From positions 52,450-116,449 of IMG/VR virus record IMGVR_UViG_3300020578_000017: DNA of 64,000 bases. One strand, written 5' to 3'. Below, in pieces: positions 19,132 through 56,569 of the stretch. The stretch comes from a virus. Below the pieces are notes generated by a model. The model was not told where the DNA came from. It saw only the letters and a program-made list of their open reading frames with translations, and made no database searches. Within the stretch, counting starts at the first letter, position 1. Each line of letters starts with the position of its first letter. A program made the position numbers and the translations under genes.

Positions 19132-19209
19132 AGATTGCCTCGCTATTCAAGAAAAATCCCCTTCTACGGGATTATAGGAGGGGTCAGTAAAATGATCTTG
19201 AAAACCTGG

Positions 19210-43204: not shown

Positions 43205-43413
43205 TTACTGGCCTCAAACTCATCAGAAAGATGATTTCTGAAACATTCTTTACAAAAAGTGTATTGTTTTTTATATTTTCTGGTATCAGATTTCTTTGTT
43301 ACATAAAAAACATCTGCGTGAGTCATTAAATACTCCAGGCAGTTGGCACAATAAGATATTGCTCGTTCTGGTGCGTCAAAAGCGGATAGCTTCATTCTGA
43401 TTCGAAAAATCAT
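43201..43413 (-). CDS. small Zn-finger protein
   Basis: CANC and CKEC pairs. Confidence 0.55.
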   Translation of the reverse strand: MIFRIRMKLSAFDAPERAISYCANCLEYLMTHADVFYVTKKSDTRKYKKQYTFCKECFRNHLSDEFEASK

Positions 43414-43724
43414 AGGACGCTTCCAAAGGTAGGGGGAAGCGGAACGGGTGACATTGGCACAGGAGTGACGCTGACTTGTGCAGCAGGGCTACCAGCAGTG
43501 GATATGGTCCCTGGTGGAGCAATCAGTGCCGGTGGAATAGTCACGTTAACCTGAACCATGATGTTCTGAACAAAATCGGCAATAGCGTTGGATAACTCTG
43601 CAGCAAGTTCTTGAGCTTGAAGTTCGGCAGGCTTGTTAGTTTTTGAGTTCTGAACAGAGTTAAGGTAAACCTGAGTGAGCCTTGCCTGAAGCGCTAATTT
43701 ATTTACTGCGTGTGGAATACCCAT
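43410..43724 (-). CDS. hypothetical protein, possibly baseplate/spike associated
   Basis: helical N-half followed by VNVTIPP..TAGSPAAQ. Confidence 0.45.
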   Translation of the reverse strand: MGIPHAVNKLALQARLTQVYLNSVQNSKTNKPAELQAQELAAELSNAIADFVQNIMVQVNVTIPPALIAPPGTISTAGSPAAQVSVTPVPMSPVPLPPTFGSVL

Positions 43725-43778
43725 AAAATTTCTTATACTTCTTTCGTTTCTCGCTTATACAAGAATAAGGTAATCTAA

Positions 43779-43832
43779 ATGTTATATCGAAATAACTTTA
43801 TTCAAGGACTAGCTTACCACGCCGGAGCCTAA
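43779..43832 (+). CDS. candidate leader peptide MLYRNNFIQGLAYHAGA
   Basis: AAGG 8 nt before ATG; tandem AAT AAC Asn codons; TAA falls in the terminator loop. Confidence 0.5.
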   Translation: MLYRNNFIQGLAYHAGA

Positions 43833-43851
43833 TGGCTCCGGCTTTTCTTTT
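43821..43851 (+). terminator. intrinsic terminator/attenuator in the operon leader
   Basis: GCCGGAGCC-TAAT-GGCTCCGGC followed by TTTTCTTTT, just upstream of AGGAG and ATG 43871. Confidence 0.8.
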
Positions 43852-43870
43852 AACCAGGAGAATTTTATTA

Positions 43871-44908
43871 ATGAATACACACCAGCAAAAAGTAGCCCTA
43901 TTTAAAATGGCAAGCTCAGCCCTCAAGGGTGCGAGAAAATACCTAGATAGCCATAACTTCCATGATGTATCATTACAAATGCCTCACATCGTAGGCGTAA
44001 CTGGCGCTTGTGAGAATGTCAGTACTCTATTTAAAGTCGATTATTTTGGCAAGGAAGCTTTTTTGGCTCAGAGTAACCAACTTTACTTGGAGCTTTGGAC
44101 TCCACATTTGTTTAACGTATCTTGTTTAGTTCGTTCTTTCCGTGCAGAGCCAGATGTAGATGCCAGGCATCAAACTGAGTTTGGCCTACTTGAATTAGAG
44201 CTACTAGGCAACCTGGACCTTCTAATCGAAAGAATTAGTGGTACTGTGAGAGCAGCTTGTAATGAGGTTGCTTGGAATCACGGTGAAGAGCTAAATAATC
44301 TTTTTGGTCGCAATCCAAAAGATATCACAGACCTAAAATTCCAAAGAGTCACTTATGTTGAAGCTATTGAACTACTTAATCAAGATAAGTTCCCAGAACT
44401 AAAGTTTGGTGACGACCTAAAGGCAGATCACGAGCTACGTTTAACTGAGCTTCTAAACGGCCCAATCTTCATTACGCATTACCCCAAGGAAATCAAGTTC
44501 TTCAATATGAAGGCAAACGCTCAGAACGATAGACTAGTCAACTCAACAGACTTGATTCTTCCCTTGTCTGGAGAGTCTGCTGGCGCCGCTGAGCGTGAGA
44601 CTGACGTTTTCCAGATTTGCGAGAAGCTTCTCAGCAACAGCATGTACCGAATCCTCAAGGAGACAACCAATGTCCAGGACGAAGACTTCGACTGGTACCT
44701 CAACGCCCACCTTGAGGAGCCCCAAGAAAACGTATTGAAACTTTACCGCGAGCATATAATCAATGGGACTTCTCCCTTGAAGGCGAAGAAGATTCCACTA
44801 CACAGTGGCACGGGTATGGGCATGGATCGAATCATGCAGTTCATCATCGGTTCATCTGATATTCGTAAAGCAAGAGTATATCCCAGAAATGCAGCCTGCC
44901 TCGAATAA
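43871..44908 (+). CDS. AsnRS-like protein lacking the anticodon-binding domain (archaeal-type asparagine synthetase A-like)
   Basis: GACE..LFKVDYFG..AFLAQSNQLYLE, motif 2 SFRAE..RHQTEF, PIFITHYP..KFFNMK, DLILP..GE..G.AERE, motif 3 HSGTGMGMDR; no N-terminal OB fold; start placed after AGGAG. Confidence 0.85.
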   Translation: MNTHQQKVALFKMASSALKGARKYLDSHNFHDVSLQMPHIVGVTGACENVSTLFKVDYFGKEAFLAQSNQLYLELWTPHLFNVSCLVRSFRAEPDVDARHQTEFGLLELELLGNLDLLIERISGTVRAACNEVAWNHGEELNNLFGRNPKDITDLKFQRVTYVEAIELLNQDKFPELKFGDDLKADHELRLTELLNGPIFITHYPKEIKFFNMKANAQNDRLVNSTDLILPLSGESAGAAERETDVFQICEKLLSNSMYRILKETTNVQDEDFDWYLNAHLEEPQENVLKLYREHIINGTSPLKAKKIPLHSGTGMGMDRIMQFIIGSSDIRKARVYPRNAACLE

Positions 44909-45584
44909 GTTAGCTGAAGCAATCAAATACAAGAAAACACATCTTTGTATCGGAATTGATCCTCCAGAGAAGTGTTATCCTTCAAAGATTGTCGATATAG
45001 TTAAAAATACCAAAGATTATTGTGTAGCCTATAAGATTAATTTGGCTCACTTTATTTCTAAGACTTCGTTTTACGAGCTATATCAAATAATTTCAGAAAT
45101 TACATCAATATGTCCTGAAAATGTTCTCATTCTTGACGGCAAGTTTGGTGACATTGGTTCAACAAATGATTACTATGCAAAATTGAATCAAGTAAAACAT
45201 ATTGACGGACTAACTTTAAACCCATACTGCGGCATAGATAACTTAGAGCCCTTCTTTAAACAGGAGGGCTCGCTCCATTTTGTATTAACAAGAATGTCTC
45301 AACCTAGTTTTGTACAGACTAGAGAAGTTTGTACAGAAATAGTAAAACAAACCAAAGGTCGTTGTGGTTATGTTTTAACCACAAGAGAAGAAGACTACTT
45401 CGACCTGGTTTGTGATCTTGCAGAAGATAGTTTTCTTCTTCTAGTTGGTATTGGTGCTCAAGGAGGAAAGATTAGCTTAATGAACAAGATTAAGCATAAT
45501 AACTTCATCTTTAACGTTAGTAGACCCTTCTTTGAAGATGAAAACGTAGTTAACACAGCAAAGTTTTATGCCGGAATCAAATAA
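44889..45584 (+). CDS. pyrF: orotidine-5'-phosphate decarboxylase
   Basis: LCIGIDP, YKIN, LDGKFGDIGST, TLNPY, GIGAQGG, NVSR; start at ATG 44889. Confidence 0.9.
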   Translation: MQPASNKLAEAIKYKKTHLCIGIDPPEKCYPSKIVDIVKNTKDYCVAYKINLAHFISKTSFYELYQIISEITSICPENVLILDGKFGDIGSTNDYYAKLNQVKHIDGLTLNPYCGIDNLEPFFKQEGSLHFVLTRMSQPSFVQTREVCTEIVKQTKGRCGYVLTTREEDYFDLVCDLAEDSFLLLVGIGAQGGKISLMNKIKHNNFIFNVSRPFFEDENVVNTAKFYAGIK

Positions 45585-46143
45585 ACCACCAGCTATTAGA
45601 ATGTTTGAAACCTTTGGGGTTATAAACAAAGGTCACTTTCAACTAAGCTCCGGTAAGCATTCAGATACTTATCTACAATGTGCAAAGTTAGATGCTAGTC
45701 CTTATGCACTACTTTCTATTGCGGGTAAGTTATTCGACCAAAACCTTATGTGGAAGCATGATGTAACCCATGTAGTAGCTCCTGCTATGGGAGCGGTTCT
45801 TTTTGGTTATACTTTGGCACTAACCATGTCAAAAACATTTATGTACCTGGAGCGTGAAAACGGTGCTCTTACTTTTAGAAGAGGATTCAGCCTCCCTGAA
45901 GGTGCAAGAGTTTTATGCATAGAAGATGTAGTCACAACTGCAAAAACAATGAATGAAGTTGTGAGCATTGTAAACTCTTATGGTGCAAAAGTTGTAGATA
46001 GAGTTTGTATCGTCAATAGAAGTAATGACGATAGCTTAAAGAGCTTTGTAAAGCTAAAAGTAGAAACATGGGACCCAGAAGAGTGCCCCATGTGTGAAGA
46101 AGGCAAGATACCGGCTAGTTATCCGGGAAGTCGTAAGATCTAG
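45568..46143 (+). CDS. pyrE: orotate phosphoribosyltransferase (Thermus-type)
   Basis: GHFQLSSGKHSDTYLQCA, APAMG, FRRGF, PRPP loop IEDVVTT, C-terminal CPMC..PGSR. Confidence 0.9.
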   Translation: MPESNKPPAIRMFETFGVINKGHFQLSSGKHSDTYLQCAKLDASPYALLSIAGKLFDQNLMWKHDVTHVVAPAMGAVLFGYTLALTMSKTFMYLERENGALTFRRGFSLPEGARVLCIEDVVTTAKTMNEVVSIVNSYGAKVVDRVCIVNRSNDDSLKSFVKLKVETWDPEECPMCEEGKIPASYPGSRKI

Positions 46144-46319: not shown

Positions 46320-46844
46320 CTAAAAGTCCTTCCAAAAGTCTGAGTAAGATTCACCAACGCTATAGTCCTTGAGTTTTATGATAGGCATATTAGCCTCTTC
46401 AGGGGTCATATTTGCTTTTTTATTATTGCAAGGGTTACAACACGTCACCAGGTTATCCCAAGAATCCTGACCGCCTCGTGATTTAGGTATGATGTGGTCC
46501 AGAGTAAGCGCAGACTTAGATCCGCAATACTGACAAGTGTATCGATCACGCTTTAGTATGCCATTTCTGGACGGAGCTGTTCTTGACTTCAAGAACTTCT
46601 TGTCTACGGGATGTATAAGCCTGATACAGAATGGAATCTTGAAGGTATCTCCGCTGACTAGTTCTTGAAGATGTGTAGGAAATACGAACCTTCGGTTCCT
46701 ATTAAGTTTAATAAACCCTACGTACTTACCTTGAGTATGCTCCGCTGGTATGGCGCGGCCCGTAATCAGCATAATGACAGTGCGCCTAGCATCCAGCTTA
46801 GCTAGCGGGATGTAGTAACTGTCTATCAGGATGGTACTCTGCAT
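46320..46844 (-). CDS. HNH endonuclease (McrA-like)
   Basis: ILKRDRYTCQYCG..LTLDHIIPKSRGG.DSWDNLVTCC.PCNNKK. Confidence 0.9.
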   Translation of the reverse strand: MQSTILIDSYYIPLAKLDARRTVIMLITGRAIPAEHTQGKYVGFIKLNRNRRFVFPTHLQELVSGDTFKIPFCIRLIHPVDKKFLKSRTAPSRNGILKRDRYTCQYCGSKSALTLDHIIPKSRGGQDSWDNLVTCCNPCNNKKANMTPEEANMPIIKLKDYSVGESYSDFWKDF

Positions 46845-56537: not shown

Positions 56538-56569
56538 AAAAAAAGCCGCGCTAAAATGCGCGGCTTTTT
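56538..56569. terminator. bidirectional intrinsic terminator
   Basis: A7-GCCGCGC-TAAAAT-GCGCGGC-T5. Confidence 0.8.

Follow-up and report, generated by a model that had tools for sequence, protein, structure and literature searches.

Leader-peptide attenuators are textbook regulators in enteric bacteria and in a few other bacteria. In the leaders trpL, hisL and pheL, and in pheM, which precedes pheST, a short leader open reading frame (ORF) is combined with an intrinsic terminator, and pheM illustrates that a tRNA-ligase operon can be controlled in this manner. In Escherichia coli, the 44-codon leader ORF of pyrBI, pyrL, continues past the terminator, ahead of which lie U-rich pause sites; at rph-pyrE of the same species, the stop codon of an upstream ORF, in this case a full gene (rph), lies near the terminator before pyrE, and the coupling of translation to transcription sets read-through. 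In the pyr leader of Thermus, PyrR is thought to block translation of a leader peptide, with a hairpin at the start of the ORF and a terminator within it. The pR′-tR′ region of phage λ carries a strong promoter-proximal terminator, passage of which needs the phage antiterminator Q and a binding element at the promoter. Here we analyse a leader in a 64,000-nucleotide (nt) stretch of phage DNA (positions 52,450 to 116,449 of IMG/VR record IMGVR_UViG_3300020578_000017; hereafter the window), in which an intrinsic terminator whose loop holds the stop codon of a 17-codon upstream ORF (uORF) stands before a cassette composed of an AsnRS-like gene, a pyrF-like gene and pyrE. The reading that we favour, tentatively and in the knowledge that it could readily prove wrong, is that this leader is a pyrBI/pyrE-like ribosome-occlusion transcription attenuator of the pyrimidine cassette of the phage.

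Leader anatomy and the proposed attenuator

The leader occupies a gap of 146 nt between the cassette, on the plus strand, and a divergent gene of 104 amino acids, and it contains the following elements.

43779..43832, plus strand: uORF of 17 codons, MLYRNNFIQGLAYHAGA, whose stop codon TAA (43830-43832) lies in the terminator loop.
43821..43851, plus strand: intrinsic terminator with a stem of 9 base pairs (bp), 8 of them G-C, the loop TAAT and the U-tract TTTTCTTTT.
43856..43860, plus strand: Shine-Dalgarno sequence AGGAG of the first cassette gene, assigned from the sequence, 4 nt past the U-tract and followed by ATG 43871.
43763..43803, plus strand: weak hairpin 1, with arms GAAUAAGGU (43763-71) and ACUUUAUUC (43795-803), present in the minimum free energy (MFE) and centroid folds.

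An earlier note on this DNA, made from its letters alone, had pointed to AAGG, ATG 43779, the 17-codon ORF with AAT AAC, the TAA at 43830-43832, AGGAG, ATG 43871 and a divergent upstream gene. All of these coordinates hold, with AAGG at 43767-43770 upstream of the uORF ATG, the Asn codons AAT AAC at 43791-43796 (codon positions 5-6) and the divergent gene on the minus strand. The 9-bp GC hairpin with TAA in its loop and a U-run, likewise described there, is confirmed as a terminator: the hairpin (43821-43842) reads GCCGGAGCC/TAAT/GGCTCCGGC and combines a G+C-rich stem and a 4-nt loop with a U-tract (43843-43851) immediately 3′ of the stem. With the hairpin included, the leader folds at −30.4 kcal/mol, whereas its shuffles average −17.4 and none of 200 equalled it (z −4.0); the sequence ahead of the hairpin accounts for −8.9 kcal/mol by itself, which leaves a hairpin contribution of about −21.5 kcal/mol. 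The hairpin 22-mer is unique in the window even when 3 mismatches are allowed, and in a stricter scan of the 116-kb record the hairpin was the sole intergenic terminator-like site confined to the plus strand. The one further intergenic match on that strand, at 56544, reads as a minus-strand terminator too and carries the gene caller's label INSIDE; the hairpin there (56542-56567, AAAGCCGCGC...GCGCGGCTTT) has T-runs on both strands and is terminator-like both ways, between convergent genes. A role of the leader hairpin as a minus-strand terminator was rejected because no U-tract follows it on that strand.

Three further features of the leader were noted. Hairpin 1 encloses AAGG and the uORF AUG, and its 3′ arm spans the second Asn codon and the Phe codon. 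In read-through RNA, the U-tract (43843-49, UUUUCUU) pairs with the Shine-Dalgarno region (43856-62, AGGAGAA) in the MFE structure. The uORF stop overlaps an in-frame ATG (TAATG, 43830-43834; ATG 43832) that would give an extended AsnRS-like ORF of 358 amino acids; this extended ORF was rejected because the same frame in a close relative of the phage, L003, meets TAA after six codons. P0006, an 81% homologue, is called with an N-terminal MAPAF extension, which implies the same loop ATG and 3′ arm.

If the leader acts as we propose, transcription would start upstream of 43779, and the RNA would carry the 17-codon uORF, which, if translated, would run through the 5′ arm of the terminator and stop in the loop. 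A leading ribosome close behind RNA polymerase at 43821-43851 would hold the 5′ arm inside it, so that the hairpin would be blocked and polymerase would read into the cassette; were the uORF untranslated or the ribosome lagging, the hairpin (approximately −21 kcal/mol) would form and transcription would end at the U-tract. Given the usual size of a ribosome footprint, a ribosome on the last codons of the uORF would cover the 5′ arm, and one at the stop codon would cover both arms. The coupling signal that we favour, by analogy with pyrBI, is the speed of polymerase at low uridine triphosphate (UTP), and we infer on the same analogy that UTP would be what the leader senses.

The effect of a ribosome on a nearby terminator is described in those sections of a report on Escherichia coli that were available to us: termination at tR2 falls from ~90% to <10% in the presence of a ribosome at a stop codon 5 bp upstream of it, provided that the ORF is translated, and full termination needs a distance of >27 nt (PMC4824070). 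In the same sections, amino-acid attenuators are said to keep the leader stop >20 bp away from the terminator, so that the ribosome does not occlude the latter, and the pyrBI terminator is placed inside its own leader ORF (PMC4824070). The phage leader has its stop codon in the terminator loop and is therefore grouped with the pyrBI/pyrE type. As in that type, the leader ORF ends at or beyond the terminator (in the loop in both the window and L003), and pyrimidine genes, pyrF and pyrE, lie downstream. The earlier note had seen no convincing antiterminator, and we agree: in folds ending at the terminator loop, no pairing of the 5′ arm beat shuffles in any of three phage leaders (z 0.11 in the window, −0.05 in L003 and 0.51 in a second relative, L004). 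This result is compatible with occlusion because occlusion needs no antiterminator. A search of window positions 43500-44000 with Rfam gave no match to the PyrR site RF00515 or to a T-box at E up to 10.

Leaders of phage relatives and cellular homologues

L003 and L004 were the two close relatives found in a metagenome scan, and both keep the cassette together with the HNH gene that follows it. In L003 (85% protein identity), the hairpin is identical, and T8 and AACCAGGAGA are present; the loop is TAGT, so that an in-frame stop (TAG) remains in it, and frame and spacing are preserved through a compensated one-base loss and gain. In L004 (63% identity), a stem of different sequence (CCCAGGACC/GGTTCTGGG, with T9) stands at the same place, so that conservation is of structure, not of sequence. 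The terminator lies 27-29 nt before the start codon in the window, L003 and L004. The leader upstream of it in L004 is unrelated to that of the window and has a 7-codon uORF, MSNEGVL, whose TAA TAA lies one base before the extended hairpin, at the hairpin foot. Contigs from four lake runs (DNA) matched the window exactly wherever the leader was covered. A second lake lineage (contigs of runs X3-X6), of whose leader 30 bases are seen, reads GGGTTCCGGC-TTTTTTTT-AAGGAGAATT before the ATG, that is, 3′ arm, T8 and AAGGAG; the 3′ arm and T-run match those of the window, and there are 10-12 differences over the first 62 bases of the AsnRS-like gene. A U-run 2-7 nt ahead of the Shine-Dalgarno sequence is also present in L003, L004 and this second lineage. 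Hairpin, U-run and Shine-Dalgarno sequence are therefore the unit that is firmly conserved across the phage clade. An alignment-based scan of viral contigs returned one relative, L002 (50% identity); viral-contig scans with the AsnRS-like protein, the hairpin pattern and the pattern of the other lineage returned no match, and GenBank phages gave no DNA match and protein matches at ≤30% identity, without annotation.

Homologous loci gathered from metagenomes and GTDB genomes came mostly from candidate-phyla-radiation (CPR) bacteria. With a divergent gene next upstream, a terminator-like hairpin was present on the gene strand of the leader in 20 of 36 loci, as compared with 5 of 122 control sides taken from the same loci. 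For the analysis of uORFs, we took the 76 leaders in which the terminator is no farther than 200 nt upstream of the estimated start and upstream sequence extends for ≥110 nt; removal of near-duplicates left 63, including those of the window and L004. An ATG-initiated uORF ending at the terminator (7-45 codons, with a stop from 10 nt before the hairpin to 12 nt after it) was found in 39 of the 63, against 12.1 expected from shuffles (standard deviation 3.0, z 9); L003 is a miss in this count because its start codon is GTG. Sixteen of the 39 uORFs stop just before the hairpin, 16 stop in its 5′ arm or loop and 7 read through. A strong TTGACA-type σ70 promoter lies ≤85 nt upstream of the uORF AUG in 24 of 38 leaders (2.0 expected), the −10 element typically ending 7-24 nt before the AUG, and a hairpin encloses the AUG in 24 of 39 (13.4 expected), as hairpin 1 does in the window. 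This layout of terminator and uORF occurs mostly at homologues of 33-39% identity, many of them from CPR genomes.

One design recurs among the CPR leaders (L022, L025, L037, L043, L049, L054, L057, L136, L146, L152, L153, L165 and L172). A TTGACA/TAnnnT promoter is combined with an AUG hairpin and with one or two terminators, at or within which the uORF stops; a T-run is often present as well. The arms of the AUG hairpin, for example CTCAGAG/CTCTGAG or CCCAGG/CCTGGG around a loop holding ATGAA, covary in sequence between loci. The design had no Rfam match in the loci scanned, and Rfam searches, RF00515 and T-box included, gave none in 20 CPR loci at the gathering score or in 12 loci at E up to 1. 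The CPR parallels appear undescribed in the literature and in the Rfam release searched.

The homologous uORFs also bear on what such a leader might sense. The earlier note had raised Asn-tRNA as a signal, and in an Asn-sensing leader-peptide attenuator, or in a variant that senses Asn as substrate, with stalling at AAT AAC in Asn shortage turning the operon off, the adjacent Asn codons 5-6 of the window uORF, the four Asn in the 17 codons of L003 (NHNNFN) and an AsnRS-derived first enzyme would all find a place. Adjacent Asn codons occur in only 3 of the 39 homologous uORFs, however, and Asn makes up 7.3% of their 613 residues, behind Lys, Ile, Phe and Leu and without enrichment; L004 has a single Asn, in an unrelated uORF, and the conserved AATAACTTTA doubles as the 3′ arm of hairpin 1. 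Nor is there an antiterminator, and the first gene does not encode a tRNA ligase (see below). A stop codon in the loop is unlike the >20 bp spacing given for amino-acid attenuators in the sections cited above (PMC4824070); with the stop so placed, expression would fall on Asn starvation, the opposite of what a supply enzyme requires. We regard Asn sensing as highly improbable. Thus, among the leader features that the earlier note had proposed to follow through an alignment, the stop-in-loop position is kept in L003 and a uORF at the terminator recurs across the homologues, but the Asn-Asn codons are not conserved.

Promoters and the passage through the terminator

Transcripts of the cassette could begin at the following site.

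43702..43729, plus strand: candidate σ70-like promoter TTTACT-16-TAAAAT, from a consensus scan (9/12 matches; unverified).

TATACT at 43734-43739 is an alternative −10 element. Promoter-like sites read by eye in the relatives are TTTACT-16-TACTAT in L004 (L004:3840-3868) and TTGTTA-17-CATAAT in L003. A further promoter-like site, at 43249-43277 inside the minus-strand genes, is a possible source of antisense (plus-strand) RNA.

Elsewhere in the record, CTATAAT is, on its placement, a clear candidate for a promoter-like motif of this phage: of its 20 copies, 13 fall between genes, and a start codon on the same strand follows 12 of these after 12-46 nt and the thirteenth (56344, plus strand) after 403 nt. 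Several copies have an ATG only 5-6 nt after the motif, so that some mRNAs would be leaderless. Sites in the window include 62181, 52369, 47986, 24423, 21000, 19177 and 10714 on the minus strand and 58929 on the plus strand. At 19132-19209 (minus strand), CCTATAAT lies inside a hairpin loop (CCCCT...AGGGG) with ATTTTT after it, so that promoter-like and terminator-like elements are interleaved.

The typical order in this phage is terminator, CTATAAT, gene. At the cassette, a promoter between terminator and first gene was rejected, the distance from U-tract to AGGAG being only 4 nt; there is no room for one behind the terminator, and therefore cassette transcripts must cross it. The claim in the earlier note that the terminator can act only on the operon's own leader nevertheless goes too far: antisense transcription from the minus-strand genes could be stopped there too.

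A strong promoter-proximal terminator before a gene block is a classic phage arrangement, and it raises the possibility of a temporal switch, in which read-through would occur only after a phage or host antitermination factor had modified RNA polymerase, as λ Q does at tR′ and N at tR1. The absence of a detectable cis antiterminator and the lack of conservation of the upstream leader sequence between the window and L004 are consistent with such a switch. Neither a factor nor a recognition site was identified, no search for either having been made; cellular homologues share the terminator layout without any phage, and the other terminators of the phage follow the usual terminator-then-promoter order. 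We consider a switch of this kind improbable.

Several observations weigh against the ribosome-occlusion attenuator that we favour. The uORF is poorly conserved within the phage clade: L003 keeps the frame, but its uORF starts with GTG and lacks a Shine-Dalgarno sequence, AAGG being replaced, and L004 has no equivalent uORF. Dinucleotide shuffling of the 100 nt upstream of the window hairpin yields, in 5.5% of cases, an ATG-ORF (7-45 codons) that stops at the hairpin. The pyrBI/pyrE-like option, put forward in the earlier note, fits in its geometry, but the U-rich pause sites of that type between leader start and terminator are missing, the window uORF containing no T-run ≥5 and no U-rich pause tract; L004 has no T-run ≥5 between its leader start codon and terminator, and among homologous leaders 18 of 38 contain such a run, only a modest excess over the 11.6 expected. 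Hairpin 1 is not stable beyond chance, its segment folding no better than shuffles (z −0.31). The cassette promoter is a weak call from sequence, promoter-like sites being no commoner in the scan than in shuffles (16 versus 17.5). Coding selection on the uORFs was not demonstrated, the cluster L151/L156/L157/L067 being small and its members highly similar. The layout is absent in the inspected cellular homologues at 44-52% identity and in the viral contig L002, so the likeness of the phage leader to the CPR leaders at 33-39% is possibly convergent. Finally, CTATAAT lies 3 nt before the hairpin of L004; if this were the L004 promoter, both L004 uORFs would fall outside the transcript and the hairpin would be 5′-terminal.

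Many of these points would be expected if the hairpin and U-run act without the uORF, the window uORF being a chance frame, an account that we judge rather unlikely. The hairpin might be a constitutive partial terminator or insulator that damps the cassette and halts plus-strand antisense transcription reading through from the minus-strand genes; it might, with a promoter directly upstream, be a 5′-terminal stabilising stem-loop with the U-tract as a ribosome landing site; or it might be both insulator and 5′ stem-loop. The CTATAAT of L004 is a perfect copy, only the block of hairpin, U-run and Shine-Dalgarno sequence is conserved across phage lineages, and the GTG start in L003 and the shuffle probability of the window uORF (0.055) point the same way. 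RNA upstream of the hairpin is not structured beyond chance, the U-tract is able to pair with the Shine-Dalgarno sequence, and the site at 43249-43277 could drive antisense RNA. However, a G+C-rich stem of 9-12 bp with 8-9 U would stop the cassette's own transcripts too, and no TATAAT lies beside the hairpin in the window or in L003. L003 preserves frame, stop-in-loop (TAA to TAG) and spacing by compensated indels, homologous genes show a strong excess of uORFs ending at the terminator, and in L004 transcription from the upstream TTTACT-16-TACTAT would include the 7-codon uORF, whose tandem stop stands at the foot of the hairpin.

The cassette genes and comparison with known systems

The window is the right-hand end of a 116-kb virus record with a completeness estimate of 65%. 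It encodes a portal protein, a large terminase, a clamp loader, a UvsX-like recombinase and GroEL, and lake-water metagenomes hold near-identical DNA; its source is a large lake-water phage. The minus strand carries 104 of the 121 called ORFs, and 43871-46143 is a plus-strand island of three overlapping genes. These genes and their divergent neighbour are as follows.

43410..43724, minus strand: divergent upstream gene, 104 amino acids, from the ORF list; no Pfam or PHROG family found.
43871..44908, plus strand: AsnRS-like class II catalytic core, 345 amino acids, without an anticodon-binding domain (PF00152, 3.4e-36).
44886..45584, plus strand: pyrF-like orotidine monophosphate decarboxylase (PF00215, 2.2e-18), overlapping the AsnRS-like gene by 23 nt.
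45568..46143, plus strand: pyrE orotate phosphoribosyltransferase (PF00156), overlapping pyrF by 17 nt.

The pyrF-like protein scores 86 bits with TIGR02127, under the cut-off of 110.6, and PyrE scores 153 bits with TIGR01367 (pyrE_Therm), over the cut-off of 150.25. The divergent gene adjoins the cassette in L003 too (62% identity over 78 amino acids), and a search for loci with it returned distant, uninformative loci only. An HNH endonuclease gene (46320-46844, minus strand) comes directly after the cassette and has the same place in L003 and L004; the cassette may travel with a homing endonuclease.

The product of the first gene is not a tRNA ligase, and it does not score as an asparagine synthetase. 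Its nearest solved structure is 1x54, in which chain residues 132-390 align to query residues 8-278; the protein begins at the equivalent of residue 132, where the catalytic domain starts, and has no anticodon domain. NCBIfam asnS and asnA models all scored it under their cut-offs. It was rejected as an AsnRS because it lacks an anticodon domain and scores under the equivalog cut-offs (TIGR00457, 160 bits versus 342.6; NF003037, 168 versus 414), and as an archaeal AsnRS-derived asparagine synthetase A because the best model, NF005052, gave 90.9 bits versus a cut-off of 368. Five of six CPR homologues scanned (~500 amino acids) bear a C-terminal MGS-like domain, which in L151 matches the allosteric end of carbamoyl-phosphate synthase (CarB type). 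In the operons examined (loci including L015, L031, L057, L100, L102-L106, L172 and L175), the AsnRS-like gene heads the operon; next come pyrD, pyrE and pyrF in CPR bacteria and Hymenobacter, and pyrF in Oligoflexia. At least one of pyrD, pyrE and pyrF lies downstream of the gene, on its strand, in 28 of the 94 loci whose sequence continues for ≥3 kb beyond it (19 of 33 MGS fusions, 9 of 61 unfused genes and 0 loci titled archaeal).

The earlier note had matched Asn-tRNA and UTP sensing to two activities of the operon. This pairing falls away, as the first gene encodes a catalytic core only and its homologues head pyrD-pyrE-pyrF operons; the theme of the operon is pyrimidine synthesis, not asparagine. 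The gene order and the MGS fusions, with the survey described next, suggest a non-canonical early step of pyrimidine synthesis. Other pyrimidine genes were also surveyed, with the caveat that metagenome-assembled genomes are incomplete: a single genome of the 12 tested (10 CPR, 2 Oligoflexia) had OTCase/ATCase-family genes, pyrC_multi gave none over the cut-off and two weak matches only, and in four CPR genomes the sole match to carB was the MGS domain of the fusion itself. Each of five Hymenobacter genomes has one transcarbamylase; the idea that Hymenobacter lacks pyrC was rejected, as 4 of the 5 have dihydroorotase-like genes (230-255 bits). A literature search, with supplements outside its scope, yielded nothing about AsnRS-like genes within pyr operons or about this leader.

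A broader proposal, which goes well beyond the leader itself and which we think unlikely to hold in full, is that there is a widespread and hitherto undescribed class of near-leaderless uORF attenuators, each with a promoter, an AUG hairpin and a short ORF ending in a terminator, that control non-canonical pyrimidine entry via an AsnRS-derived ligase. The phage would have captured module and regulator together to sustain synthesis of uridine monophosphate (UMP) in the infected cell, and the Asn codons might report substrate supply. Should the leader prove to be a ribosome-occlusion attenuator, as we favour, phages would be seen to import host-style metabolic feedback together with metabolic genes, and the recurrence of its layout at CPR homologues would extend the control logic to lineages with almost no known regulation. 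The analysis also shifts attention from a phage AsnRS to an AsnRS-derived enzyme apparently of pyrimidine synthesis. According to the available sections of a 2010 survey, no leader-peptide attenuator had been shown outside Proteobacteria and Actinobacteria before the Firmicutes cases presented there (PMC2965389). A host is said, in the available part of another report, to lower UMP synthesis early in phage infection, which would give a phage reason to carry pyrimidine genes (PMC10986495).

Among described systems, the phage leader is most readily set beside pyrBI, with which it shares a terminator before the first pyrimidine gene, a leader ORF running into or through it and no need of an antiterminator, as far as pyrBI is described in the sections available (PMC4824070). 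It differs in that its uORF has 17 codons, stops in the loop and contains no T-run ≥5, in having no sequence similarity to pyrBI, and in being phage-borne with an AsnRS-derived ligase as its first gene. With rph-pyrE it shares an ORF stop close to a terminator before a pyrimidine gene, whereas its uORF is a dedicated one of 17 codons. A short leader ORF and an intrinsic terminator in a 5′ leader also recall trpL, hisL, pheL and pheM; the runs of cognate codons, antiterminator hairpin and >20 bp stop spacing by which amino-acid attenuators are characterised in those same sections are all absent from the phage leader (PMC4824070). The model for PyrR in Thermus resembles the phage and CPR leaders in its AUG hairpin and its terminator at the ORF, but neither the window leader nor 12 CPR loci matched RF00515, the PyrR attenuator family (no pyrR gene search was made). 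With λ pR′-tR′ and Q the phage shares a gene block behind a strong promoter-proximal terminator; it differs in that no antiterminator or binding element was identified, no search for them having been made, and in that cellular homologues share its leader layout. Taken together, these comparisons indicate that the phage element is best filed as a phage-borne variant of the translation-coupled pyr attenuator.

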